This document shows positions 2 to 13,837 of a stretch of 16,510 nt of DNA, piece after piece. The stretch is taken from the NCBI GenBank assembly GCA_049973735.1, contig JBMFJL010000008.1, positions 1-16,510 of the forward strand, in the 5' to 3' direction. The notes under the pieces were generated by a model. It was given only the letters and a program-made list of their open reading frames with translations, did not search any database and was not told the DNA's origin. The position numbers were made by a program, and so were the translations under genes. Every line of letters begins with the position of its first letter. Positions within the stretch are counted from its first letter, which is position 1. Source of the DNA: Nanopusillaceae archaeon. Its GTDB lineage: Archaea; Nanobdellota; Nanobdellia; Nanobdellales; Nanobdellaceae.

Positions 2-163
2 TTAGAAGGTGGAAAGGTAGTTAGATTAAAGAAACAATGTCCTAGATGTGGAAGATTTATGGGAGAACATAAAGATAGATATCATTGTGGATATTGTGGA
101 TATACCGAATTCAAAATTAAGCAAGAGAAAAAATTAATAAAGGAAATTGGAATCCAAATATAA
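2..163 (+). CDS. rps27ae: Ribosomal protein eS31 (S27ae), C-terminal part; 5' end lies outside the window
   Basis: Frame 2 translates to [53 protein letters not shown]. The CPRCG...[14 protein letters not shown] zinc-ribbon is the signature of archaeal S27ae. The TAA stop is at 161-163. It is absent from the ORF track because it has no start codon in the window. Confidence 0.8.
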
Positions 164-479
164 AATAAAATATTTTGGATTTTTTAGATCTATTATAGGT
201 TTAATGTTTCAAATCCCAGATAAAAATACAATATATATATTGGATCTAGGGAAGGATAGAGAAGATGCAGATGTCCATACATTTTTTTGCTTAAAGCCAT
301 TGGATATATACTTGTATGACTCGAATTTAAATTTAGTTGGTTATAAGAAAAATATGAAGCCATTTAGAGTATATAGACCAAGAAAAAAATTTAGATATGT
401 AATAGAAGGCATAGATTTAAATGAGGATAAACTAAAATATGCTTTAGAAAAATTAAAATCATTCGAATTTGCTAGATAA
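147..479 (+). CDS. DUF192-like small protein (hypothetical)
   Basis: 110-aa ORF with a TTG start that overlaps the S27ae 3' end by 17 nt. RSIIGLMF, then [15 protein letters not shown], then FRYVIEG resemble the DUF192/COG1430 pattern (GLM..., M-x-x-PLDIiF-D, yVLE). This assignment is from memory of the family pattern only. The first in-frame ATG would cut the GLM motif, so the TTG start is plausible. Confidence 0.5.
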
Positions 480-836
480 CATCTCAAATTCTAAGAATAA
501 TCTATCTACAGAATTTTTTATATTCTTTATATTTTCAGATAAAGATTTGGATATTTGTGCTTTAAATTGAGTTGGAATTGCAGGATTTTGGGATATTTCT
601 TCATGATAAATTTCTAGATACGATTTGAGTAATTCTAATATATTTATTAAATCTTGCAAAAGGATAAATATATAGTTTATTTCTTGTAATTGATATTGAT
701 ACAAAATATTCTGGTTAGTTAAAGTTTTTTCATACATATTAATAGATCTTATATGTATAATGCTACTGTTCACTTTGTTTATTAAATTTGAAATGGAATT
801 TAATATTTCATTTTCTTTCTCCTGATAATTCATCAT
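459..836 (-). CDS. Hypothetical small helical (coiled-coil-like) protein
   Basis: 125-aa ORF with no TM segment and no Cys. It has heptad-like L/I/N/E-rich composition. Its end converges on and overlaps the DUF192-like ORF by 21 nt. I recognise no family. Confidence 0.45.
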   Translation of the reverse strand: MMNYQEKENEILNSISNLINKVNSSIIHIRSINMYEKTLTNQNILYQYQLQEINYIFILLQDLINILELLKSYLEIYHEEISQNPAIPTQFKAQISKSLSENIKNIKNSVDRLFLEFEMLSSKFE

Positions 837-2392: not shown

Positions 2393-3043
2393 CTAGACTA
2401 TTTTTATACTTTTGTTTCCAAGATTTAGCAAATAAACTCTTACAGACTGGAAGAAAGTTATATTGTTTATTGCTCTACATGGTATTTTATTGCATATAAT
2501 TTTCCCATCTAAGTTTTCAGTGCAGATTAAATCATCTTGAACGTAGGTTTGAGATAAAAATATGAAAGATTGGTTGTTTGAGGATAAATTATTAATACAA
2601 AAATCATAAACAAATTTATAGAAATCTGAATAAAAGTTCCTGCATATTTCCAGTTTCATATAATGAAATTCTCCATTTATAGATATTGGATAACTTATAT
2701 TATCGCAATTACCGAAATAATTTATTATGCCAAAACTATAATTTTCTATATATACTCTGAATGGATATGGAAATGTTGTACAGTTAGGCAATTCATTAAA
2801 AAAAGTTTTATTATAATATGATAATTTATCATAAGTTGTATAATAAATTGAATAACCTTGGTAGCCAATACAATTTGGAGAAAATAATTGATATATAATA
2901 TCTTGGGAATATGAAAAATAATTCTGTCTTTCAAAATTGTATAAATTTAAAGAAGAAAAGAATGCAGTAATTAGAATAATACCCACTATAAAGAATACTA
3001 TTAATAGAGTGGTAAATGCTACAGAAAACTGATATCTCCTCAT
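2393..3043 (-). CDS. Orphan Cys-rich N-terminally anchored surface protein (last gene of the cluster)
   Basis: 216 aa. The N-terminus MRRYQFSVAFTTLLIVFFIVGIILITAFF is a short basic head plus one hydrophobic helix. The ectodomain has 8 Cys and several N-x-S/T sequons (NKT, NCT, NYS, NIS, NLS, NQS, NIT, NKS). Its start is 1 nt from the upstream gene's stop. Confidence 0.7.
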   Translation of the reverse strand: MRRYQFSVAFTTLLIVFFIVGIILITAFFSSLNLYNFERQNYFSYSQDIIYQLFSPNCIGYQGYSIYYTTYDKLSYYNKTFFNELPNCTTFPYPFRVYIENYSFGIINYFGNCDNISYPISINGEFHYMKLEICRNFYSDFYKFVYDFCINNLSSNNQSFIFLSQTYVQDDLICTENLDGKIICNKIPCRAINNITFFQSVRVYLLNLGNKSIKIV

Positions 3044-3044
3044 T

Positions 3045-4277
3045 TTATGTACTACAGTATGTATTTACTTCCATAGTATCTGGACATTGAATATCTTTTG
3101 CACAATCAGGATTACATTCACATCTAACATTTATCCAACATATTATACAATCCCTTCTATAAGATACATAATATAAAAATTCTATAGTTTTTGTGTCAGT
3201 ATCTTCTGAAACTACTGATGAAGATCCACATCCATCTAGAGGATCACAATCTTCCCATTGATTATTTAATTTGCAAGTTAGTGGTAATGGTGTTATTGGT
3301 TTACCAGTAGTCTTATTAACCTTATATTCACATTTATATTCACATATTTTGTATGCATATTGAGTTACATTTTGGTAATAGACTATAGAGCTAAATGTTA
3401 TCCTTTGTGGCAATGTCACACCATTATAATATACATTGTAATCTGTATGCTCACAAGACAATGTTATGATACAGGCAATTCCTATTGGATACCAACAATA
3501 TTTGTCACAATTCAAAGGAACTTTACATTGATATGGAATTATACTCTCATTACATTTTACAGCTGGATTTCCTACAAAATTCTCGAAGGAATCTTTACAA
3601 GTATATGTCGGAGAACCTAATAAAGTATTTACACAATCTACATAGGAGCAATCTGAAAATTCACCACTTAATGAAAAATCATAGGCATTTCTATACAAAT
3701 AAAATGCAGGATTATTTGTTACATTAAATGAATATAGATATGGATATATGGCGCCTGTATTTGGACTGGTTACATTTATATATATTCCATTGACTCCGAT
3801 TGGGAACCAATAATCATATTCTCCAGAGTTTACATTTTGACAACTACCAATTATCCCAGCAATATACTGATCTGAAAAATTTAAATTTACATTAAAAGGA
3901 TAATAATATTTTTCTTGATATAAATTTAGCATTCCTATGTTCGATTCCTCCATAATACCTTCCATTAGCAGTTTATTATAAAAGCTCATGGCATCGGGAC
4001 ATTCTGGAGGCATATGACATCCATAAGGTACTGAAGCCCAATAACTTTGATTCCAAGAATTAGTACCAGCATTATAAGATTGTGTATACGCTTGTTGTTG
4101 TATTAGAGTTGACATATACCCTAAAAAATAATTTACTAATGTATTAACAGATGTATATCTAATAAATACTTCATTTTGTTTATAACTTAATGTTAAAGCA
4201 AAAAATACTAGCACAACTACTGAAATGATTAAAGATAAAAACAATATCGCATATAATATTTCATTTTGAAGTCTCAT
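3045..4277 (-). CDS. Orphan highly Cys-rich N-terminally anchored surface protein
   Basis: 410 aa. The N-terminus MRLQNEILYAILFLSLIISVVVLVFFAL is a signal-anchor. It has 24 Cys (about 6 percent), clustered at the C-terminus (RDCIICWINVRCECNPDCAKDIQCPD). It has many N-x-S/T sequons. Its ATG overlaps the upstream stop by 4 nt (4274-4277). Confidence 0.75.
   Translation of the reverse strand: MRLQNEILYAILFLSLIISVVVLVFFALTLSYKQNEVFIRYTSVNTLVNYFLGYMSTLIQQQAYTQSYNAGTNSWNQSYWASVPYGCHMPPECPDAMSFYNKLLMEGIMEESNIGMLNLYQEKYYYPFNVNLNFSDQYIAGIIGSCQNVNSGEYDYWFPIGVNGIYINVTSPNTGAIYPYLYSFNVTNNPAFYLYRNAYDFSLSGEFSDCSYVDCVNTLLGSPTYTCKDSFENFVGNPAVKCNESIIPYQCKVPLNCDKYCWYPIGIACIITLSCEHTDYNVYYNGVTLPQRITFSSIVYYQNVTQYAYKICEYKCEYKVNKTTGKPITPLPLTCKLNNQWEDCDPLDGCGSSSVVSEDTDTKTIEFLYYVSYRRDCIICWINVRCECNPDCAKDIQCPDTMEVNTYCST
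3322..3345 (-). repeat. Perfect 12-nt tandem duplication (2 copies) inside the 410-aa gene
   Basis: The plus strand has ttatattcacat twice in a row (3322-3333 and 3334-3345). This encodes the in-frame duplication CEYK-CEYK. Confidence 0.85.
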
Positions 4278-5443
4278 TTTTTAATAATAGCATGAAGATA
4301 TATAAATATTATTATTGCAACTGTTAATACAAATCCATGTATTGTTCCCCACACTATGCTTGCATTTGGAAAGTTTATTAAATTAATTAATATACCAAGT
4401 TTTACTGGGAATTCATATCTAGAAAATTCCAGTAGTTCACCAGTAAATAACTGTAATAAAAACAATATTGCTAATGTTATACCAAAACCTTTTTTCATTA
4501 CTTTATTAGATAATCTATAAAGTCCATAGTGTATGCCTGCTATTAAAAATATAAGAGAAGGTATATACCTTGTATGCAATAAAAAAGCATAAAAATCCCT
4601 AAATGTTAGGAAATAAAGACCTACAAAAATTTCTAGAAATGATAAAGTCAATAGAAGGTGATCGGTAAAATTATGAAATCTAGTTGAAATATTCTTTTTA
4701 TATATTTTGTAAAGTACAAATAATTCTACGACTGAAAATATTAAACTGAAGGTATACATATATTTATGATAATTAGATGTGTTATATTGAAATAATCTAT
4801 AAGTAGACAAAAGTATTTGTACAAATATAATGAAAAATATTGCTAGATATAGATACTTTTTATATTTATCAATTTTATTTAGTGCAGAAGCTATATTTAT
4901 TTTTGGATCTTTGTTTATATAATTCTGTAAAAACAATAAGACAGATGCGATTAATAATAATATTGATATTACTAAAAATACCAAATATTTATTACGTAGA
5001 AAGCTAATGGGGAATATATAATAAATATAAAAAGGGACGACTATATCAAAATTCTTGTAGAGAAAATGAATGAAAAGTATCAAAAAGAGTAAGAAAATAT
5101 TTAGAATATAAATCATGATTGATTTTTTTGAAAAAGAAAATTTATTTTCGACAATATAGTATCCTAAAATAAATGAGAGCATATAGAATAACACATAGTC
5201 AACGATTAACGAGTAAATAACTTCTATAATCATATAAGTTCTAAAAATAAAAATTGGTATTATAAGATAAGATAGCTTGTACAATTTTGACGCCTTTGTA
5301 TATTTTAAAAATAAGAGAAGTAAAAATGAATAAATTAGTCCAAATATGGTTATGAAAATTGAAAAGTCGCTAAGAATTAAAAACAAAAAATATTCTAAAA
5401 TATATATTAAATAGAAAATTATATTTTCGTTTAATTTTACCAT
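4274..5443 (-). CDS. Polytopic integral membrane protein, Cys-free, unknown family
   Basis: 389 aa, almost entirely hydrophobic, with roughly ten or more predicted helices by eye. It has zero Cys. His residues sit in the last helices (IAGIHYGLY and WGTIHGFVLTVAIIIFIYLHAI). It overlaps both neighbours (7 nt and 4 nt). Confidence 0.75.
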   Translation of the reverse strand: MVKLNENIIFYLIYILEYFLFLILSDFSIFITIFGLIYSFLLLLFLKYTKASKLYKLSYLIIPIFIFRTYMIIEVIYSLIVDYVLFYMLSFILGYYIVENKFSFSKKSIMIYILNIFLLFLILFIHFLYKNFDIVVPFYIYYIFPISFLRNKYLVFLVISILLLIASVLLFLQNYINKDPKINIASALNKIDKYKKYLYLAIFFIIFVQILLSTYRLFQYNTSNYHKYMYTFSLIFSVVELFVLYKIYKKNISTRFHNFTDHLLLTLSFLEIFVGLYFLTFRDFYAFLLHTRYIPSLIFLIAGIHYGLYRLSNKVMKKGFGITLAILFLLQLFTGELLEFSRYEFPVKLGILINLINFPNASIVWGTIHGFVLTVAIIIFIYLHAIIKK

Positions 5444-6987
5444 ACCTTTAAAACACCTACTAGGTATCCGCCTAAGTAAGGAACATTAACTGGTAAATAG
5501 AAATAAAATACATATACTGATACCCCTTCTGGTACAGGATATCCTAATTGCACATAATTGCCCTTACCTTGGAACATAAAGGCGTTCAATTCGTAAACTT
5601 TATCATCTTCTGTTAAACAATATAATCTAGCCATTGCAACACCATTACTATGTATATGTGGATCCCAATAAGCGGCAGATACATAAATATATGGTGTGTT
5701 TGGATCTCTATCATTTATAACCCATTTTGTTATATTGAATCTATATAATCCCTGAGCAGATAACCCATCTACATTAATTCTATATACTAAAGGACAATCT
5801 TTCCCTACAGTCACTCCTCCAACATTTGTAATATCATCATATACTCCTGTAGGACAGTCTATTAGATTACCATTTTTATAATATTTACAATAAGGATCTG
5901 CTGCCAGGAATACATATTCCGGTTGTCCATTTTTATTTAGGTAGGATATATATAATCTAACTACTTCATGCCATGGATAATCCATAAAAACTTGTTTGCA
6001 GAAATCTGGTATAATAACCTGTCCTCTATAGAAAGATCCGACCACAACTTCAGTATTTGATATCAAATTTAACATCTTTGCTAAATAAGTTATATCTGTT
6101 GCTGTTTTATATGTAGGAGGATTTTCATAATAATGAAAAGTAAAAATTTTTCCACAATGATCTCCTTCGCCATCGAAAAACTTTGGTAAATTTTTAGTAG
6201 GTTCTGTACTTCCTCCACATGCTCCTAAAGGACCAAAATCTTGAAATAGTTTCCATTCTCCATTTGGACAAAAAACTGATGCATCAGTGAATTTTTGATT
6301 TGGCAATACTTTTGACAAAGGTAAACACACACCTCTCTTTATGGCATCTTCTATATTATTAGCTGGAGAATATAGACCTTGAAGACCCCAATTTGATGAA
6401 GAAGTCCATTCATGAAAAGGTGCAGTTGCGTTTACCCAGCCAGCGCCTTTTATTGTTACTGTACCGAAGTTAGGAACATACACATTTTCATTGTAAGAAT
6501 CGGTAAAAAAGTACGTATAGTTCCATTCATACCATTCTATATTATTATTATCCTTTGGTGGATTGAATGCACAAACATCATAACTTCCTTCATTTCCAGT
6601 AACTATGAACATTTGAACAATCCATCCGGTTACAGAAGGTAAATAGTAAACAGTTAGGTTCCATCTATTTCCATAAATGGCATCAAAATATTCCTTAATA
6701 TCTTTTGAAATATTTGTGCAGATTCTAGGATTTATACAATAAGTATCATTTCCTGATGTAGACCAATAGGATAATAAGAAAGAATAAGATAAATTTACTT
6801 TTGAATCAAATATATAAGATAATAGGTCTACGCTATTTTGAATAGTCAAAGAATATTGATTAATGGACTCTTGGCCAGTTGTAGTTTGTGATGAATAATT
6901 ATAGGAGAGCAAATAAGCTAATAGACCGGATAATAGAATTATTCCAGCAATAATAGATAAAGTTAAGACATTTATATCAGATTTCAT
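5437..6987 (-). CDS. Orphan large N-terminally anchored surface protein
   Basis: 516 aa. The N-terminus MKSDINVLTLSIIAGIILLSGLLAYLLSY is a signal-anchor. It has 12 Cys, is rich in Y/W/N/G, and has several N-x-S/T sequons. Its start lies 1 nt after the upstream stop. I recognise no domain. Confidence 0.75.
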   Translation of the reverse strand: MKSDINVLTLSIIAGIILLSGLLAYLLSYNYSSQTTTGQESINQYSLTIQNSVDLLSYIFDSKVNLSYSFLLSYWSTSGNDTYCINPRICTNISKDIKEYFDAIYGNRWNLTVYYLPSVTGWIVQMFIVTGNEGSYDVCAFNPPKDNNNIEWYEWNYTYFFTDSYNENVYVPNFGTVTIKGAGWVNATAPFHEWTSSSNWGLQGLYSPANNIEDAIKRGVCLPLSKVLPNQKFTDASVFCPNGEWKLFQDFGPLGACGGSTEPTKNLPKFFDGEGDHCGKIFTFHYYENPPTYKTATDITYLAKMLNLISNTEVVVGSFYRGQVIIPDFCKQVFMDYPWHEVVRLYISYLNKNGQPEYVFLAADPYCKYYKNGNLIDCPTGVYDDITNVGGVTVGKDCPLVYRINVDGLSAQGLYRFNITKWVINDRDPNTPYIYVSAAYWDPHIHSNGVAMARLYCLTEDDKVYELNAFMFQGKGNYVQLGYPVPEGVSVYVFYFYLPVNVPYLGGYLVGVLKVW

Positions 6988-6988
6988 T

Positions 6989-7885
6989 TTATCTTAGATA
7001 GTAAAGTAGTAGTAATAAGGCCACTATAATAATTACTATTGCTATAGCTATTGGCCATTTATATGGGAATTCACTACTTTTAGTTTCAGTTATATTCTGT
7101 TTTACTAAATTTAAATTAATATTTGTTGTTGCCGTTTCTGTATTATTTGTGTTATTAATGCAAATAAAAGTTCCGGTACATGTAACTTTTATAGTATTTG
7201 GTGGAGGACAGAAATATTCAAAAGAAGCATATAATACCAATAAAGAAAAATTGTTTGGACATCTATACCAGTTTCCATTAAAAGTTGAATTCGGTGGACA
7301 ATAACCACACATAACTTCTTTTCTATAAGCTTCAACCAACTTTTGATAATCTGTCTTATTGTAATTTGGTGGTATGTTTGGTATATAAGGTGGTTCAAAA
7401 CATGGATAAGGGGTAGAGCTACATTCAGGTACTAACCAAGGTTTATCGGGGCATTCTAATATACTTGTACAATTTGTTTTATTTGTATAAAATGATAAAT
7501 CAATATCTTTTAGGATTCCTTCAGGAAGTAAAGATTGTGGAATGATCAAAGTACCATTTGGATATTGACAATAAGAATTATTTACAATTATTCCATCAAT
7601 AATTTCTTCCTCTCTAACTAAGGATAAATTATAATGGGCGCAAAAAGAATATTCTGGAGGTACTTCATTCATATAGTATTGAAATATATCAAATGGAACT
7701 CCATTTACTATACAATATTCTCCTGTTGAATTCGAATAGTATTTACCACCACCATATTCGCAATATATTACAAAAGCATCTTTTAGAGAATATGATTTGT
7801 TATATATTAATAAAGCAAAAAATGTTAAAAATACGATTATAAGGAATGTCTTTTTACCTTTGGTGAATATTCTTCTATAGCTCAT
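6989..7885 (-). CDS. Type-I membrane surface protein with two DUF333-like Cys motifs and a C-terminal TM anchor
   Basis: 298 aa. The N-terminal signal is MSYRRIFTKGKKTFLIIVFLTFFALLIYNKSYS. The C-terminal anchor is KWPIAIAIVIIIVALLLLLYYLR. It has 14 Cys and about 13 N-x-S/T sequons. YCEYGGGKYYSNSTGEYCIVNGVPFDIFQYY resembles the DUF333/COG3042 pattern (vYC-x2-GG...G-x2-C-x-lPNG...eW). A degenerate second copy is FCAHYN...SYCQYPNGTLI. Confidence 0.7.
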   Translation of the reverse strand: MSYRRIFTKGKKTFLIIVFLTFFALLIYNKSYSLKDAFVIYCEYGGGKYYSNSTGEYCIVNGVPFDIFQYYMNEVPPEYSFCAHYNLSLVREEEIIDGIIVNNSYCQYPNGTLIIPQSLLPEGILKDIDLSFYTNKTNCTSILECPDKPWLVPECSSTPYPCFEPPYIPNIPPNYNKTDYQKLVEAYRKEVMCGYCPPNSTFNGNWYRCPNNFSLLVLYASFEYFCPPPNTIKVTCTGTFICINNTNNTETATTNINLNLVKQNITETKSSEFPYKWPIAIAIVIIIVALLLLLYYLR

Positions 7886-7906
7886 AATAAATTTATTAAT
7901 TATACT

Positions 7907-7915
7907 TATTTAAAA
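7907..7915 (-). promoter_or_regulatory. TATA box for the 7885-2393 transcription unit
   Basis: The minus strand reads TTTTAAATA, centred about 26 nt upstream of the ATG at 7885. It lies in the only sizeable internal gap of the cluster (79 nt). Confidence 0.5.
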
Positions 7916-7964
7916 GATTTTTACTATTATTTACTAGTTTTTATTTTTCATAGGTTTTGATCTA

Positions 7965-9434
7965 TTATGTAGTAACATTCTGTATAGCAAATACTTCAAG
8001 TTTTGGAAAGGTTATTCCGTAAGGAGTCATTCCAAATGGTATATACATGAATCCATCTTGTGACCAATAGACACCTTCACATCCATCTCCATATTTACAA
8101 TTTCTAAACTTGCTTCCGCATGTGTTCGGATCTCTAGATACCAAGCGGTAATATCCTCCTCTTCTGAATTCTAAGCAGCCTGTAAGTTTTCCCCATGAGT
8201 TTTCAAGTATCCAGCATTTGGGAGTTCCATATACTGTTTTACATAGTGTAGAATTTAGATCGTATCCTACTATCACCATTGCATGACCTGTGCTATTGTC
8301 TTCTGTTGTCATATTCTCAGGCAGATTTGGGTTTCCGGAAGGATAAGATTTTCCTCCAAGCATTCCACCAACTACTAGAGGACCATAACAAGCAATAGCT
8401 TTCACTAAATTATCGTTAGAAGACCATTTTAAGTTAATAACATTTTTTGCAAAATACTTTGGAGTGCCCCAGTTAGGATCAGGAATTACTGGAGCGCCGC
8501 ATACATTTCCGGGATAGTTATCAGAAGTTGGAGAACAAGTATATAAATAGTCTCTATATTTTTTATAATCTATATCTGCATGAACACCAAAATTAGTTGC
8601 ATACCTTAATGCTAAAGATGGAAGTCCACCCTTGCATCCCAGATTGAATTGACAATAAGCAGGAGCACCCGGAGCCATCCAATTGCAGTGAACTGCTAAT
8701 TCGTATGCTGCAATCCAAGGATTTTGTCCAGGTTTATCATTTCTAATCATATATACCGCATCTAAACCATTTGCAGTTGCATATGCCCAGCAATCTCCAC
8801 AAGATCCTTGTGATGTAATTGGTGGTAAGTAATTTTTACCATTTATATCCCCCCAAAACAATCTTTCTGGTGGATTGTTTGGATCTAAAAGGCAATCTGC
8901 GGAAAAGTTAATATTATTATTACCACCTCCACCACTACCTCCACCTCCACCTCCACCACCTCCGCCCCAATTGTTACTTATGTTGAAGCTATTTGGAAAT
9001 GAAGGTAAATTGGTATTGGATAGGTTCAAAGCACTTATATTTGTTGTAGTTATATATACAGTTCCGTTTGTTTTAACAAGATAAATAAAATTAACATATA
9101 GTAATTTATCTACAATTGTTCCATTATTAAATAATACTACAGTATTGTTATCAAAATCAATAGTATAATTTTTATTGTTGTATTCTACTATTAGCGAATT
9201 ATTTGATGAGTATAATATAACATTGCTGGGTAGTTCAATTTCAATATAAAAGTTTCCTGGAAAAGTATTTATGGTATTTTGTAAATTTTGAAGATTATAC
9301 ATAAAATTGTTGAATAACTGTTCTTGTTGGTATTTTTGAACATTAGTTGTATATTGATAATATATCAAAAATGCAGAACCTACAACTATTAATATTATTA
9401 CAGTATTTAGAAGGTTAATTTGTAACCTCCTCAT
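7965..9434 (-). CDS. Membrane-anchored papain-family (C1) cysteine protease fused to a pilin-like N-terminal module via a poly-Gly linker
   Basis: 489 aa. Residues 1-26 are MRRLQINLLNTVIILIVVGSAFLIYY (anchor). Residues 27-156 form an N/Y/I-rich beta-looking module. Residues 157-171 are G10-S-G4. Residues 172-489 carry the C1 signatures: Q209 (SQGSCGDCWAY), catalytic C215 (codon 8790-8792), H384 in GHAMVIVGYD (codon 8283-8285), and N412 in ENSWG (codon 8199-8201). It has 15 Cys in total. Confidence 0.85.
   Translation of the reverse strand: MRRLQINLLNTVIILIVVGSAFLIYYQYTTNVQKYQQEQLFNNFMYNLQNLQNTINTFPGNFYIEIELPSNVILYSSNNSLIVEYNNKNYTIDFDNNTVVLFNNGTIVDKLLYVNFIYLVKTNGTVYITTTNISALNLSNTNLPSFPNSFNISNNWGGGGGGGGGGSGGGGNNNINFSADCLLDPNNPPERLFWGDINGKNYLPPITSQGSCGDCWAYATANGLDAVYMIRNDKPGQNPWIAAYELAVHCNWMAPGAPAYCQFNLGCKGGLPSLALRYATNFGVHADIDYKKYRDYLYTCSPTSDNYPGNVCGAPVIPDPNWGTPKYFAKNVINLKWSSNDNLVKAIACYGPLVVGGMLGGKSYPSGNPNLPENMTTEDNSTGHAMVIVGYDLNSTLCKTVYGTPKCWILENSWGKLTGCLEFRRGGYYRLVSRDPNTCGSKFRNCKYGDGCEGVYWSQDGFMYIPFGMTPYGITFPKLEVFAIQNVTT
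8922..8966 (-). repeat. Low-complexity (GGN)n tract encoding G10-S-G4
   Basis: The plus strand is a 45-nt CCA/CCT/CCG run, the most G+C-rich stretch in the window. The antisense poly-Pro ORF at 8875-9084 is its shadow. Confidence 0.9.
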
Positions 9435-9458
9435 TATAAAAAATTATGATTGAAGGTT

Positions 9459-9466
9459 TTTATAAA
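9459..9466 (-). promoter_or_regulatory. TATA box for the protease gene
   Basis: The palindromic octamer TTTATAAA is centred about 28 nt upstream of the ATG at 9434. It lies immediately after the stop of the upstream gene, in a 34-nt gap. Confidence 0.5.
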
Positions 9467-9468
9467 TT

Positions 9469-9912
9469 TTAGGAGAGAGGTCCTAGGGAGATCTTAACCG
9501 TAGTTGGATTAGTTTTATTTATTATTAATTTGAGTATTTCATAGTCCTTTCCATAGTAAGCTGTATAATAAATTCCAGATGTATAATATCTAATCTTTCC
9601 ATCAGGAGTATCTATTACTATATTGCAATCTGATGTATGATTTAAAAATTGATCATATACATAACAAGAAATTATTTTATTATCTGATATTATATAGTTT
9701 AAATATTTGTTTGCTTGAAAATCTAAATATACTACTGTTCCTTGATTGGAAAAGCAAACCTGATCTATTTTATTAAAAAGTATTTGACATTGATTTATCT
9801 GAGTGTTAATCAATTGGAATTGCTCATTTGAATGGCTAAATTTAAAATATAAAAATAAAGCTAATCCGAAGGCAATTATAGATGCTATAACCCAAAACCA
9901 ATTTTCTGTCAT
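9469..9912 (-). CDS. Small N-terminally anchored protein (minor-pilin-like candidate)
   Basis: 147 aa. MTENWFWVIASIIAFGLALFLYFKF is a single N-terminal helix. It has 4 Cys at positions 42, 53, 83 and 96. The C-terminal part is beta-rich and Y-rich. Its ATG overlaps the upstream stop by 4 nt. Confidence 0.65.
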   Translation of the reverse strand: MTENWFWVIASIIAFGLALFLYFKFSHSNEQFQLINTQINQCQILFNKIDQVCFSNQGTVVYLDFQANKYLNYIISDNKIISCYVYDQFLNHTSDCNIVIDTPDGKIRYYTSGIYYTAYYGKDYEILKLIINKTNPTTVKISLGPLS

Positions 9913-10328
9913 TGTACTTTTAGATATACGTAATCTCCATCTTGGCTATAATACACTAAAACATAAGAATTTGGCGTTATAGTGTAATCGCATCTTTGAA
10001 TTACAACATTTTTATCTATACTTAATACTTTGCTTATAAGATCGCTACAAGTAAATGATTTTGTGCCTGTATATTGGATTAAATAACATAAACCTATTTG
10101 TCTATTTCTATAACAAGAAATTACATCTAAAGCTACTTTATCTATAGAATCAACACTAGTTTCTACAATAGTAGTTGCATATGAACTATTACTGAGCGTT
10201 CTACTAACATAATTGCTGGCACTATTCTTGATTGTGAATATTATACCTAGAATAACAACTGTTACTATTAATCCTATCAGTATTAAAAATGTTAGATTTA
10301 CTGGCATTTCTAGACTTTTCATTGCCAT
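9909..10328 (-). CDS. Small N-terminally anchored protein (minor-pilin-like candidate)
   Basis: 139 aa. The N-terminus is MAMKSLEMPVNLTFLILIGLIVTVVILGIIF. It has 4 Cys. It overlaps the upstream gene by 10 nt. Confidence 0.65.
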   Translation of the reverse strand: MAMKSLEMPVNLTFLILIGLIVTVVILGIIFTIKNSASNYVSRTLSNSSYATTIVETSVDSIDKVALDVISCYRNRQIGLCYLIQYTGTKSFTCSDLISKVLSIDKNVVIQRCDYTITPNSYVLVYYSQDGDYVYLKVQ

Positions 10329-10789
10329 AGTATAATTTTACTATTGTTGTATATTATAAATATGCTCTGACGTGGAGCTAAATAAGTACGATATTTTAGG
10401 TTTAATTCCAATTTTTTAGTATCGAAAGTTGTGTATTTATTTAAATTTGTTATTATATCATTTACATCTACATTTACATTTTCAGCTATATATAAATCAT
10501 AGCAAACATCTAGTAATTTATCAGTGTTTACATTCTTATTATAACAATTTAGTATATATCCTGCAATATCAAATGCAATTTCAGATTTGGTTTTATTTTC
10601 AAAGTATATTTTTATTGCTGAAGGATAGTATTCAGAACATTCTGGAGAAAAACCTCCTTGCGATATCAAGGTTTTACAATAATAGCCAGAAGACTTGCTA
10701 AAAAACATATTATACATTAAATAAGCCAATACACTAAATGAAATTATTCCAATTATAATATAGAATACTTGTTCTATTGCAATATTCAT
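10319..10789 (-). CDS. Small N-terminally anchored protein (minor-pilin-like candidate)
   Basis: 156 aa. The N-terminus is MNIAIEQVFYIIIGIISFSVLAYLMYNMFF. It has 4 Cys at positions 38, 51, 82 and 96, nearly the same spacing as the 147-aa protein. Its ATG overlaps the upstream stop by 4 nt. Confidence 0.65.
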   Translation of the reverse strand: MNIAIEQVFYIIIGIISFSVLAYLMYNMFFSKSSGYYCKTLISQGGFSPECSEYYPSAIKIYFENKTKSEIAFDIAGYILNCYNKNVNTDKLLDVCYDLYIAENVNVDVNDIITNLNKYTTFDTKKLELNLKYRTYLAPRQSIFIIYNNSKIILWQ

Positions 10790-11073
10790 ATGTATGATAT
10801 ATTTCCTTGATAAATATAAATTATTCTATAGCCAGAAGGTATTGTTATACCATTTATAGTACAGTTATACAATAAATAGACCTTTATATCTATTATTTTA
10901 TTAAAGCTCTCTTTGTAATAGTTCATAAGCTGATTGCAATCTATTGCTGGAATGTTTTCTTCGTTACTAACATAATTTTTAACTTTTCCCAAATAAAGAA
11001 AGGAGAATATACCCCCAATTATTATGAGTATTAATACAATTATCATCCAGTAAATATTAAATTGATTCTTCAT
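10786..11073 (-). CDS. Small N-terminally anchored protein
   Basis: 95 aa. The N-terminus is MKNQFNIYWMIIVLILIIIGGIFSFLYL. It has 2 Cys. Its ATG overlaps the stop of the 656-aa gene by 4 nt. Confidence 0.6.
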   Translation of the reverse strand: MKNQFNIYWMIIVLILIIIGGIFSFLYLGKVKNYVSNEENIPAIDCNQLMNYYKESFNKIIDIKVYLLYNCTINGITIPSGYRIIYIYQGNISYI

Positions 11074-13040
11074 GGAACAAACTTTTGTGGCAAATATGGG
11101 CCAAATATTGTAAATACCATTACTATACCCATTACTGTAAATATAGTATAAAATATTGTTCCTGTAATTAAATTTTTTCCAATATAATAAGAAATCATTG
11201 TTTTGTCAAAACCATATTTTATTCCAGCAGACATAAATGAAGTCAATACTACATATTCTACAAAAAATATTCCTATAATTGTTTGAAAATAAGATTGTGG
11301 AATTAAATTATACATATTAAATGTATTTAATATAAAGTCATGTAGTCCAAGGCCTCCTGGTAATCCTAAGGCCATACCTATGAGTTGAAAAAAATGTGCT
11401 ATAGCAAATAACATAGCTACTATAGCATTGTTAAATACTGTTACTATAGATGAGATAAGAGGAACCAAGTTTTTAGCAGTCATATCTAACATGCTAACAA
11501 TTTCATTTAATAGTTTTCTAACTTGATATCTTATATTAACGACATTTTCTAAGTTATATGATATATTATAAGTAATTTGTGATAAAACTTGTGGACCTTT
11601 TGGTAGGGAATATACTATTAATTGCATTGTTTCTCTAATCAATTTTGATGGATAAAAATTTAGTGATCCGAATCTCTGATGAAAAATAGAGTCATATAGA
11701 CTAAATCCCTTTCTTAAGTTATATAATGTTATCTTGAGAAAATTTTCCATAACACCACTAGATTTGATTATTTTATAGTTTTCATAGGTTTTATGTATAA
11801 CAACTTCCATAGGATATCCATCTTCTAATAATGAAGCAAATTCATATGTTACAATCGGAAATTCATTTTCCATTTCCTCAATTTCATTTATCCTTTTCAC
11901 TTTCTGAAAGGATATTAAATAAAAATAAGAACCTATTGCAAGACCTAAACCCAATGGTATAGTTAAAACTAATAAAGAATTGTGCAGTGCTCTGTCTTGA
12001 AATATTATATTTAGATATCCATTTTGGTCTCCAGGTGGTAAATATACTATTTTTATTGCTAGACTAATCAAGTAATATACCCCTATTGCTATTAAGGATA
12101 AAAACATTAGGGATATAACATATGCAGGAACTTCTTTATTTCCAATTCTGAATCTACCTTCTCTGGGTAAGTCTTTTGATAAAGACAAATCTGGAACTGC
12201 AAAAGCAAAAGGATTTTTGGATAATAAGTTTTGTATTACTAAAAAAGTCAATATTGGTAATATTATTATATAGCCAAATGCAATAAAATAAATACTAACT
12301 GTATTTAATATAAATACCGATAGTAATGGAAGCATAATTAAGCTAACCAATGGAAGCATTACTAAGAATGATACAATCATTGTGGCCGGTTCCTTCAAAG
12401 CTGCTACATAATTTTCTGATTTTTCTAATGATTTTTTCAATACCCAGTTTAATATTCTATCTACTAATTTATTTATTTCTTCTAAAGATGTTTTGTATTT
12501 TATATTTATTAAATGAGTCATTGCATAAACAAAGTCAGGATTCAAATAAAACCATCTATACTGATAATATTGTATTGCACTATCAAGTTCTTTGAATCTA
12601 CCAATTTCTAGATCATATATTAATTTTTTGAAATCCGTAGCAATTACTCCATTGAGATAATATGCAACATACTGTATAGCTTTCTCTAGATTGGGATTTC
12701 TCTTCAGATATAAAGATAAGTATAATACGATCCAAACAGATTCTGATGTAGCCTGAATTTTTACTATTTGTGTATAAAATATCGGATAGTACATTAAATA
12801 GAAATCAAGTATTAACAGTGAAATGAAGAGGGAAAATGCAAATTGAAATGATAAGAAACCGAGTATTACGAATAACAGTATTGATATTATAAATAAAGAT
12901 AAGGTGGAAGAAAAGATGTTCTCTGGGGTAGTATTTAATCTATTTAACCATAAATGGAATGTATATAATTTTTCAATTTTTTTTGGAGGTTTTACTTTAA
13001 ATATTATAAATCTGTTATAAAAAAATTCAAAAATATACAT
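11070..13040 (-). CDS. Polytopic membrane protein with FlaJ/TadC/PilC-like (T2SS-F-type platform) architecture
   Basis: 656 aa with zero Cys. By eye the layout is two repeats of a soluble helical segment of about 120-150 aa (residues about 90-215 and about 380-530), each followed by clusters of TM helices. This is the arrangement seen in archaeal FlaJ/PilC platform proteins. It lies directly after a pilin-like gene. Family membership was not verified by alignment. Confidence 0.45.
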   Translation of the reverse strand: MYIFEFFYNRFIIFKVKPPKKIEKLYTFHLWLNRLNTTPENIFSSTLSLFIISILLFVILGFLSFQFAFSLFISLLILDFYLMYYPIFYTQIVKIQATSESVWIVLYLSLYLKRNPNLEKAIQYVAYYLNGVIATDFKKLIYDLEIGRFKELDSAIQYYQYRWFYLNPDFVYAMTHLINIKYKTSLEEINKLVDRILNWVLKKSLEKSENYVAALKEPATMIVSFLVMLPLVSLIMLPLLSVFILNTVSIYFIAFGYIIILPILTFLVIQNLLSKNPFAFAVPDLSLSKDLPREGRFRIGNKEVPAYVISLMFLSLIAIGVYYLISLAIKIVYLPPGDQNGYLNIIFQDRALHNSLLVLTIPLGLGLAIGSYFYLISFQKVKRINEIEEMENEFPIVTYEFASLLEDGYPMEVVIHKTYENYKIIKSSGVMENFLKITLYNLRKGFSLYDSIFHQRFGSLNFYPSKLIRETMQLIVYSLPKGPQVLSQITYNISYNLENVVNIRYQVRKLLNEIVSMLDMTAKNLVPLISSIVTVFNNAIVAMLFAIAHFFQLIGMALGLPGGLGLHDFILNTFNMYNLIPQSYFQTIIGIFFVEYVVLTSFMSAGIKYGFDKTMISYYIGKNLITGTIFYTIFTVMGIVMVFTIFGPYLPQKFVP

Positions 13041-13047
13041 TCGAAAT

Positions 13048-13815
13048 CTATGGTGCCGGTGGTTGTGCTATTATACTGTATGGCATCTGGATTAATACTT
13101 TACATAAAGGTTCTTCACCATTTACTTTAAGTGCTGAACAAGATCCCTTTACATATAAAATACCATCCTTTACAGTTAATTCTAAGTTACCTCCTTTACA
13201 ATCATGATTATTGTAATATTGTAATATGTTATACAATGCTCCGAATATTTGGTTAGTGATCCATGTTGGTATATTTCCGTTGCATGCAGAAGTTGGTCCT
13301 GGATTTAATGCTTTTGATGGAGTATCGAATGATATCTTAATATCTCCAGGTGCCAGCGATACTTGTGTATATGTTCCAAATATTAATGCTGTAGCGTTTG
13401 CAGGATCATAGTATAGATCTGATATATAATGTTTACACAAGAAGTACATACATGCTAATGGAGTTATTTGAGTTCCTTGATATATACATGCTTGTTGTCC
13501 GCTTCCACTACTAGATCCCCATTGCTGTAATACTACACTACATGGAACAGCATTAGCACATACATAATATCCTGGAGATACTTCCTCCCATCCATTTCCA
13601 ACAGCAACATATTTTTGACAGAAATCTATAACACTATTACATGCATTTGTACAATCTGATACTGCTTGTGATATCTGTGTATTAGATAATTGTCCTATCT
13701 TTGATGCTTGCTGTGTAAATAGCTTTATTACTACTACTGCAATTATTAACATTATTAGTATTACAAAAACCAATTGTACTGCCATATCTATTGCCCTCTT
13801 TTTCATAATAATCAT
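13048..13815 (-). CDS. Pilin-like (class III signal peptide-like) Cys-rich secreted protein; first gene of the cluster
   Basis: 255 aa, starting MIIMKKRAIDMAVQLVFVILIMLIIAVVVIKLF. The basic head plus A|I plus a hydrophobic stretch of about 20 residues is a near match to archaeal prepilin-peptidase substrates ([KR][GA]|hydrophobic). It has 12 Cys. TATA spacing favours the fourth-codon ATG (13806) as the true leaderless start, giving MKKRA|IDM. Confidence 0.55.
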   Translation of the reverse strand: MIIMKKRAIDMAVQLVFVILIMLIIAVVVIKLFTQQASKIGQLSNTQISQAVSDCTNACNSVIDFCQKYVAVGNGWEEVSPGYYVCANAVPCSVVLQQWGSSSGSGQQACIYQGTQITPLACMYFLCKHYISDLYYDPANATALIFGTYTQVSLAPGDIKISFDTPSKALNPGPTSACNGNIPTWITNQIFGALYNILQYYNNHDCKGGNLELTVKDGILYVKGSCSALKVNGEEPLCKVLIQMPYSIIAQPPAP

Positions 13816-13829
13816 AAAATATCTGGGTA

Positions 13830-13837
13830 TTTATAAA
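13830..13837 (-). promoter_or_regulatory. TATA box for the cluster's first transcription unit
   Basis: This is the same palindromic octamer TTTATAAA as at 9459-9466. It is centred about 27.5 nt upstream of the ATG at 13806, but only 18.5 nt from the ATG at 13815. Confidence 0.5.

Follow-up and report, generated by a model that had tools for sequence, protein, structure and literature searches.

A lineage-specific set of pilin-like genes in Nanopusillaceae that probably belongs to a derived type IV filament locus

Introduction

What kind of surface machinery, if any, is encoded by a dense run of membrane-anchored orphan genes in an ectosymbiotic archaeon? We addressed this question in a stretch of 16,510 nucleotides (nt) from a Nanopusillaceae archaeon (the whole of contig JBMFJL010000008.1; hereafter the window), in which a cluster of 12 minus-strand open reading frames (ORFs), g1 to g12, occupies positions 2393-13815. 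A sequence-only reading had presented this cluster as a candidate apparatus of an undescribed kind. That part of the claim did not hold, because the platform family to which g2 belongs sits beside a T2SSE ATPase and prepilin genes in other DPANN archaea. The cluster consists of a platform protein, about nine pilin-like proteins and an orphan protein with 12 transmembrane (TM) helices, and is not a categorically new apparatus. We put the probability at about 65% that it is a derived type IV filament (TFF; type IV pilus-like) locus of Nanopusillaceae/Nanobdellaceae, unlinked from its ATPase.

Type IV pilus (T4P)-like systems and several FlaJ/TadC homologues in Nanoarchaeota have already been reported (PMC6142677, PMC4858521, preprint 10.64898/2026.06.04.730037), with four such homologues counted by Jarett et al. 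2018 (PMC6142677). For one clade of nanoarchaeal ATPases, the survey of Makarova et al. 2016 could not identify the pilins that go with them (PMC4858521). What is new here is a set of modular pilin-like proteins, rich in disulfides and specific to the lineage.

The platform protein belongs to a family found beside secretion ATPases

The main evidence comes from g2 (11070..13040; all cluster genes lie on the minus strand), a polytopic, Cys-free protein of 656 amino acids with ~7-9 TM segments that we assign to the T2SSF/TadC/FlaJ class of platform proteins. The T2SSF profile matched 5 of 19 members of the g2 family (best E=2.3e-5), and the g2-family profile gave a weak match to the cytoplasmic domain of GspF in the PDB (E=0.15). 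A PDB search with a distant g2 relative yielded nothing useful, and a look-up of the exact g2 sequence returned no record. Close homologs (55-99% identity) were found in Nanopusillaceae, together with distant homologs that share 22-29% identity over nearly the full length, one of them from a Woesearchaeota metagenome-assembled genome (MAG).

The genomic context of the distant homologs was consistent. In all four distant loci, a T2SSE ATPase of 757-772 amino acids lies upstream of the g2 homolog, with two small genes in between in one case. Using a distant ATPase, we retrieved 80 further metagenomic loci, which brought the related loci to 84 in all; 59 of the 80 had enough sequence to evaluate, and in 45 of these 59 the gene next downstream of the ATPase was of the g2 family. 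The platform gene of the distant loci is followed by genes for 5-9 small proteins that carry canonical K-[KR]-G↓[QAE] class III signals; MKKRG↓QELSTNTIIVVILAV and MDKRG↓AEITLNTVIIG are examples. The T2SSF matches within the family and the adjacency to the ATPase together mark the g2 family as the cognate platform of a type IV pilus-like system that is widespread among DPANN archaea, and they uphold the earlier description of g2 as FlaJ/TadC-like.

These Woesearchaeota-type loci are probably the archaeal TFF system 2, or clade 2, of earlier surveys (PMC4858521 and 10.64898/2026.04.22.720090). System 2 has been described as having one platform gene, pilins with class III signal peptides (SPIII), pilin-like proteins that lack the SPIII motif, membrane accessories and large adhesin-like proteins (10.64898/2026.04.22.720090). 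The Nanopusillaceae cluster resembles the loci so described. Like the DPANN TFF loci, the cluster has a homologous platform with pilin-like genes arrayed downstream of it, the class III proteins of those loci are homologous to the N-terminal modules of g1 and g5, and Cys counts downstream of the platform are mostly even. Unlike them, it is unlinked from an ATPase, most of its leaders are shortened to MK-x-Q without Gly at position -1, and it carries genes g6-g12, including the papain-type cargo and a His-rich 12-TM protein, for which those loci have no counterparts (0 of the 84). The core of the cluster therefore does match a pilus system already described, but at least 7 of the 12 proteins do not: as far as sequence searches reach, g6, the g7 N-module and g8-g12 are without relatives outside the lineage.

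The even Cys counts of the Woesearchaeota-type class III proteins (2-8 Cys) were observed for most such proteins in locus L012 (12068-16952) and for some in L005 (9878-15917). Arrays of disulfide-bonded pilins may be general in this DPANN system.

Most of the ten anchored proteins have conserved pilin-like N-termini

The cluster proteins measure 255, 656, 95, 156, 139, 147, 489, 298, 516, 389, 410 and 216 amino acids (g1-g12). Topology analysis agreed with the proposed division into ten helix-anchored and two multi-pass proteins: 10 of the 12 carry one N-terminal hydrophobic helix behind a short K/R head, and g2 and g10 are polytopic and Cys-free. The composition of the ten also fits the predicted extracytoplasmic location. 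They contain 99 Cys, all C-terminal to the N-terminal helix, and the count is even in every pilin-like protein except g7 (15, that is, 14 plus the catalytic Cys). Cys makes up 4.18% of the ectodomains (beyond residue 35) compared with 0.62% of the flanking cytosolic proteins. N-x-S/T sequons are likewise enriched in the ectodomains, with 55 present against 29.8 expected from shuffles (1.85x), and show no excess in the flanking cytosolic proteins (5 against 5.6 expected).

The best candidate for a major pilin is g1 (13048..13815), a 255-amino-acid ORF with 12 Cys whose leader MKKR[A/G/S]-[I/V]-[D/E]-MAV is followed by a hydrophobic helix of ~25 residues. The ORF opens at an upstream ATG (MIIMKKRA...), whereas four of five aligned orthologs begin at the equivalent of Met4 (MKKR/MKRR). 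Because the orthologs start there and a TATA-like box lies 31 nt upstream, the true start is probably Met4 (nt 13806; 252 amino acids). g1 has no Pfam or PDB match, and a hidden Markov model (HMM) of its family matched canonical class III proteins (KKRG↓QELS...) in other DPANN loci that hold the ATPase and platform genes (E=4e-5 and 1.7e-5).

Four small proteins follow the platform gene. g3 (10786..11073; 95 amino acids, 2 Cys) begins MKNQ-FNIY, g4 (10319..10789; 156 amino acids, 4 Cys) has ..IA↓I[E/D].. at its N-terminus, and g5 (9909..10328; 139 amino acids, 4 Cys) begins MAMKS-LEMPVN. The g5 HMM also matched small proteins in other DPANN ATPase and platform loci (E=3.4e-7 and 7.3e-8). These HMM matches of g1 and g5, together with the conserved N-termini described below, support the pilin-like parts named in the sequence-only reading. 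The fourth small protein, g6 (9469..9912; 147 amino acids, 4 Cys), has a single helix without a class III-like motif; it begins MTENWFW, and MEKWFW in the comparison across orthologs.

Three larger pilin-like proteins are encoded at the other end of the cluster. g9 (5437..6987) has 516 amino acids, 12 Cys and the N-terminus MKS-DINVL; its orthologs include MJ1_0107 and Nst1_645. A search gave 40 g9 homologs, of which those with a named source all come from Nanopusillaceae, Nanopusillus, Nanobsidianus or Nanobdella, and none of the 40 had a Pfam match. g11 (3045..4277; 410 amino acids, 24 Cys) begins MRLQ-NEIL, and g12 (2393..3043; 216 amino acids, 8 Cys, 8 sequons) begins MRRYQ-FSVA; both are without a Pfam match. 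An AlphaFold2 (AF2) model of g9 (pLDDT 58) shows an N-terminal helix (residues 2-57), an alpha/beta part and a beta-rich C-terminal domain. Foldseek against the PDB found nothing significant for this low-confidence model, the top weak matches being PA14/flocculin lectin domains, no more than a hint; g9 is a possible adhesin.

The N-termini are related to one another. The motif MK-x-Q-[I/L/V/F]-x plus helix opens g3, g5, g7, g9, g11 and g12 and is kept across orthologs. By hhalign, the N-terminal regions of g3, g7N (the g7 N-module), g9, g11 and g12 form one group (28-57% probability for g3 against the other four; 75% for the first 90 residues of g11 against g9), and g1, g4 and g5 form a second (g4-g5, 84%; g5-g1, 76%), with g6 pairing with g7N (55%). 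The first 35 amino acids of g1 are 74% identical among orthologs compared with 52% for the rest. The same region is equally or more conserved than the rest in g4-g7N, g11 and g12 and slightly less so in g3 and g9; the N-terminus of g8, which has a Sec-type signal, is clearly less conserved (0.33 versus 0.45). Such conservation is as expected of retained, functional helices, as in pilins. With respect to the class III signal, g1 fits, g4 is intermediate, g6 has no motif, and the six MK-x-Q proteins lack Gly/Ala at -1.

A papain-type protease is carried on a pilin-like module

g7 (7965..9434; 489 amino acids) is a modular pilin-like protein that starts MRRLQ-INLL and comprises an N-module (~amino acids 1-157), a linker (158-171) and a C1 peptidase domain (200-441). 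The last matched PF00112 with E=1.8e-21 (77.7 bits; cut-off, 20.7). Its catalytic residues Gln209, Cys215, His384 and Asn412 align with those of cathepsin L and keep the QGxCGxCW, H and NSWG motifs, and the displayed papain-type hydrolase of the sequence-only reading is therefore intact at its active site. Peptidase_C1 was the sole Pfam match above threshold among the 12 cluster proteins; profile searches confirmed this one family, and no Pfam or NCBIfam family reached threshold for the other 11.

In contrast to cathepsin L and other members of MEROPS C1, g7 has no I29 propeptide; the pilin-like N-module with its helix and a Gly14 linker stands in its place. It also has 14 further Cys and four sequons, at 374, 380, 394 and 486, in or just after the protease domain. 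The linker is encoded by 14 Gly/Ser codons (GGGGGGGGGSGGGG) at 8920-8965 on the minus strand, between the pilin module and the protease.

The carrier of the protease differs between related genomes. The papain domain is joined to the g7N module in the window, in L004, L008, L009, Nanobdella aerobiophila and Nanobsidianus stetteri Nst1. In strain YN1, it is found on a g6 module (L001:13201-14940), with g7N as a free 141-amino-acid protein (L001:15785-16210), and it is absent from L010. Since the papain domain changes its carrier or is missing, it behaves like cargo on a pilin carrier. A similar arrangement is known in bacteria, where PilB and PilC of Streptococcus sanguinis reportedly graft a pilin module onto a functional domain so that an adhesin or enzyme is displayed on the fibre. 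The bacterial modular pilins share this layout with g7. They differ in belonging to another domain of life with no sequence relationship to it, and the cargo here is of the papain family, with a carrier that varies between sister genomes.

Gene order and chromosomal position are conserved

We compared the cluster with loci from YN1 (L001/L011), two Logan assemblies (L003/L004), Candidatus Nanopusillus MAGs (L008, L009), a Nanopusillaceae MAG (L010), N. aerobiophila MJ1 (L013) and Nst1 (L014); a genome scan with an alignment of eight close g2 sequences gave five loci. All 12 genes are present in one shared order across the fetched Nanopusillaceae/Nanobdella loci, with Nst1 inverted after g10, so that the linkage is conserved across genera. 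The g2 ortholog of the cultured strain YN1 is YN1_4460, and the cluster orthologs of N. aerobiophila would correspond to MJ1_0099-0110. In a literature search, these N. aerobiophila orthologs were not mentioned in any paper.

The best conserved cluster protein is g2, at 55-74% identity to its orthologs, a level comparable to that of the flanking enzymes (41-77%), and no pseudogenisation of g2 was seen in eight genomes. The other cluster proteins are 27-61% identical to their orthologs, which fits exposed, fast-evolving proteins.

Housekeeping genes flank the cluster on both sides, in keeping with its proposed chromosomal nature. Pfam and NCBIfam scans identified DUF371, a RimK-type ATP-grasp protein and RpoH on one side and an arginase-family enzyme and UDG on the other. 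The same flanking genes are present wherever the fetched stretch reaches them, on both sides in N. aerobiophila, L004 and L008, and the upstream flank is common to all loci examined. The slot between the rpoH-RimK-DUF371 and the arginase-UDG genes is thus occupied by the cluster in these three loci and in the window.

The genes are closely spaced. Junctions are overlaps of 4, 4, 10, 4, 7 and 4 nt or gaps of 1, 1 and 7 nt, with larger gaps of 34 nt between g6 and g7 and 79 nt between g7 and g8. The minus strand of the window holds only 10 copies of the octamer TTTAWAWA, and 4 of the 10 stand 29-32 nt upstream of the ATGs of g1 (Met4 start), g7, g8 and g11, for which a rough hand estimate gives a chance of ~6e-5. 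The TATA-like boxes lie at 13830..13837 (TTTATAAA; 31 nt upstream of the g1 Met4 ATG), 9459..9466 (32 nt upstream of the g7 ATG, within the 34-nt gap), 7907..7914 (29 nt upstream of the g8 ATG, within the 79-nt gap) and 4299..4306 (29 nt upstream of the g11 ATG), all on the minus strand. The last is a possible internal promoter within the 3' end of g10. The boxes, spaced at -29 to -32 as in archaeal leaderless-type promoters, point to three or four transcription units. This agrees with the tight packing and the two promoter-bearing gaps described before, and the overlapping genes and three to four boxes suggest an operon structure, which we count in favour of a filament locus.

A model of the locus and the points against it

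In the model that we favour, g2 would act as the membrane platform, driven by a secretion ATPase encoded elsewhere in the genome. The two would pull the pilin-like subunits out of the membrane by their conserved N-terminal helices and assemble them into a polymer, either a filament or a short pseudopilus, with g1 as the main subunit and g3-g6 as small minor subunits that prime or cap the fibre. g7, g9, g11 and g12 would serve as modular pilins, whose N-modules would display large, N-glycosylated domains with disulfide bonds as cargo along the fibre. In g9, g11 and g12 these domains would probably be adhesins; in g7 the domain is an intact papain-type cysteine protease, which would cut host S-layer protein. 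g8 and g10 would be lineage-specific membrane accessories. Processing of the N-termini and polymerisation are predictions, as are the subunit roles. The organisms are obligate ectosymbionts of S-layer-covered Thermoproteota, so host attachment and local S-layer cleavage would be the most natural functions, and a host surface (S-layer) protein is the likely target of the g7 protease.

Several observations weigh against this model. The T2SSF match of g2 itself (E=0.044) is below the Pfam threshold. No secretion ATPase was found by tblastn in the window or within +/-10 kb of six Nanopusillaceae loci, and no A24 prepilin peptidase match was found among the window proteins in Pfam scans; Makarova et al. 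2016 found no prepilin peptidase in two nanoarchaea either (PMC4858521). The pilin-like proteins match no pilin family in Pfam, NCBIfam or the PDB, a negative that counts for little, since even the canonical class III proteins from the related loci match none. The canonical Gly/Ala at -1 is absent from most N-termini, and their leaders span only 3-4 residues; they could be uncleaved signal anchors. The g9 model is of low confidence, and a literature search found no expression or localisation data for cluster genes. As for the ATPase, a metagenome scan with the ATPase alignment recovered Woesearchaeota-type relatives only and no Nanopusillaceae ATPase. Secretion ATPases are present elsewhere in this lineage, which speaks for the model: Nst1 is recorded as having three clade-2, one clade-4 and one archaellar secretion ATPase, and a separate 549-amino-acid FlaJ (PMC4858521 supplement).

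A further comparison is with the Epd pilus cluster of Methanococcus maripaludis. That cluster has 11 genes, including the peptidase EppA, and its pilins carry a KG↓Q site and a DUF361 motif with Gln at +1. The Nanopusillaceae cluster resembles it in being an operon of many genes, among them several for minor pilins and some for adhesin-like proteins, and Gln is kept at the putative +1. It differs in having neither a DUF361 or Class_IIIsignal match nor an EppA-type peptidase, and in that the platform of system 1 is split.

Alternative readings of the cluster

The main rival to a filament locus, which we consider unlikely, is a bindosome-like display, in which the platform and pilin-like parts form a short pseudopilus or raft that holds g7, g9, g11 and g12 in the quasi-periplasm under the S-layer. 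The Bas system of Sulfolobus positions sugar-binding proteins that carry class III signals. In both the Bas system (BasEF and BasABC) and the cluster, a TFF core would position large extracytoplasmic proteins with pilin-type N-termini. Four of the pilin-like proteins here are large (216-516 amino acids), and their bulky, Cys-rich, glycosylated domains would pack poorly along a thin fibre; the small subunits number just four plus g1; and a cell that scavenges nutrients would profit from a papain protease held close to its own surface. Moreover, a 2026 TFF census reports that cargo proteins with class III signals are widespread (10.64898/2026.04.22.720090). However, the cargo of Bas consists of ABC-transporter sugar-binding proteins encoded elsewhere and its ATPase is adjacent, and neither is seen in the cluster, where domain scans detected neither ABC transporter genes nor domains of substrate-binding proteins. 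g1 comes first in the operon and has the most conserved N-helix, and so resembles a polymerising major subunit; the related DPANN loci resemble ordinary pilus loci. An adjacent ATPase, as in the Aap, Ups and Bas loci, was not found by tblastn, and their accessory or cargo components (AapX, UpsX, BasABC, sugar-binding cargo) were not recognised in the cluster by domain searches, as opposed to direct sequence comparison, in agreement with the sequence-only reading that it is none of these.

That reading had also set the archaellum aside. An archaellum locus or a mobile or viral island is contradicted by the data, and we regard either as extremely improbable. The FlaJ-like platform would suit an archaellum, but no archaellin (FlaB), FlaH, FlaI or FlaF/G Pfam match was found; Nst1 has its separate FlaJ, distinct from its 656-amino-acid g2 ortholog, and YN1 has FlaBDEHIJF (PMC11420986). 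In favour of an island, the GC content of the AT-rich window (0.22-0.39, ~25% overall) rises slightly over g7-g9, to a maximum of 0.39. The poly-Gly linker of g7 accounts for this local peak, which coincides with the linker and with Cys/Gly-rich coding sequence, and the conserved chromosomal slot speaks against mobility. A cluster without a working filament, in which co-regulated signal-anchored proteins stand beside a relic platform that lost its ATPase and the helices are anchors only, seems to us improbable. None of the Nanopusillaceae examined has the ATPase at this locus, the N-termini are non-canonical and pilin family matches are absent, as a relic would have it. Against this, the N-terminal helices are conserved and mutually related, and the high conservation of g2 without pseudogenisation indicates purifying selection on a functional platform.

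Imaging of N. aerobiophila, YN1 and YN4 has revealed a large cone-portal-tube organelle by which they attach to their hosts, and all three papers call its proteins unknown (PMC11420986, PMC11104419, YN4 preprint). A link between the cluster and this attachment organelle of Nanobdellota is a plausible conjecture. The specific proposal that the cluster encodes its 7-8 nm tube or filament, perhaps also the portal or cone, with the protease pilin opening the host S-layer, is doubtful, and we place it somewhat below the bindosome-like display. The full cluster is present in two imaged cultured strains, YN1 and N. aerobiophila, and searches with g2 or g9 returned no homolog attributed to N. equitans. 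The tube of 7 +/- 1 nm grows from symbiont to host and the host S-layer is displaced (PMC11104419, YN4 preprint), which would suit a hydrolase-tipped pilus-type fibre. This evidence is correlative, however. The intercellular filament of YN1 appears continuous with 6.6-nm cytoplasmic bundles (PMC11420986), unlike a membrane-assembled pilus; nothing in the cluster obviously accounts for the 220-nm multilayer cone; and the authors of the YN4 preprint, who cite the T4P-related genes YN4_047, YN4_417 and YN4_710, list T4P genes only as adhesive-pilus candidates. An extended form of this proposal, a step less probable again, would make the operon the genetic basis of the organelle's tube or portal. 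It would be an ATPase-unlinked TFF machine whose short MK-x-Q leaders possibly dispense with a classical prepilin peptidase, with a protease-tipped fibre passing through the host S-layer and g10 as a new bis-His (heme or metal) family that gives redox support to this disulfide-rich fibre.

If the organelle link is true, the cluster provides a candidate gene set, for gripping or breaching the host, for an organelle whose proteins three recent papers call unknown. It is a defined and conserved set that comprises a platform, one protein that is probably the major subunit, four small subunits, two membrane accessories and four modular pilin-like proteins, of which one is a protease. If the link fails, it is still the first described pilin repertoire of a nanoarchaeal T4P-like system, a modest advance. 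Of wider interest are an enzymatic cargo that swaps between pilin carriers in sister genomes, a prepilin-like leader cut to three or four residues and an orphan 12-TM protein with a cytochrome-b-like His arrangement.

Two lineage-specific membrane proteins accompany the pilin-like set

The first of the two accessories, g8 (6989..7885), is a type I membrane glycoprotein of 298 amino acids that has a Sec-type signal and is anchored by a TM helix at its C-terminus; it contains 14 Cys, 13 sequons and the DUF333-like motif AVYCxxGGG. The sequence-only reading had called it type-I DUF333-like, and the type I layout was confirmed but the family was not: the g8 ortholog of L004 reached 20.8 bits against a DUF333 (PF03891) cut-off of 25 (E=4.8e-4), and g8 of the window gave no DUF333 match at E<=1. 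g8 is duplicated in YN1 and L010.

The second, g10 (4274..5443), is the Cys-free 12-TM orphan of 389 amino acids. Its ORF is full length in all orthologs (387-403 amino acids), and the NCBI annotation of the source MAG covers only the C-terminal 236 amino acids (P0027). Exhaustive HMMER searching found 8 representatives of g10 among 1.84 billion proteins, and a word-indexed search found 3. The AF2 model has 12 helices (pLDDT 79, pTM 0.81) and is without a PDB fold match by Foldseek; sequence searches gave no match to a known family. Of the 12 proteins, g9 and g10 were those taken through structure prediction and Foldseek, a route that the sequence-only reading had proposed, and neither gave a significant fold match.

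The invariant residues of g10 are His290-Thr-Arg and His305 on TM10, GE336xxE339 on the next helix, and His369 and His384 on TM12, so that both TM10 and TM12 show an H-x14-H pattern. In the most distant relative (P0076), the outer His pair is lost together and the inner pair is kept. By the positive-inside rule, the two His-bearing helices would run parallel, with one His pair near each membrane face. We take this arrangement to be reminiscent of the bis-heme b-type carriers (cytochrome b / FRD / b561) and note it as unexplained. Two other identities were considered for g10 and rejected: a prepilin peptidase, for which an invariant Asp and a GxGD motif are both missing, and a second platform protein, for which the hhalign probability against g2 was 6%.

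Rearrangements and neighbouring genes

The inversion in Nst1 (contig OBNano_10008; L014, ~12813-20787) splits the cluster after g10. A 196-amino-acid g11 fragment lies at one breakpoint and a g10-like fragment at the contig end, and g11 and g12 stand at full length on the other strand. Either the genome is truly rearranged here or the assembly is at fault.

A 13th gene follows g12 in N. aerobiophila (L013:14683-15729, plus strand), where it encodes a ~348-amino-acid paralog of g10 with 31% identity over the N-terminal 200 amino acids. A gene for 345-349 amino acids occupies the same position in Nst1 (L014:16949-17986, minus strand) and YN1 (L001:21375-end). It is absent from the window, L004 and L008, where g12 adjoins the arginase-family gene.

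Scanning the window for Rfam families and tRNAs gave no match. Beyond the UDG gene, and outside the cluster, the window contains an ORF for 125 amino acids without a family match (459-836, minus strand) and one for 110 amino acids with a weak match to DUF192 (147-479, plus strand; E=0.04).

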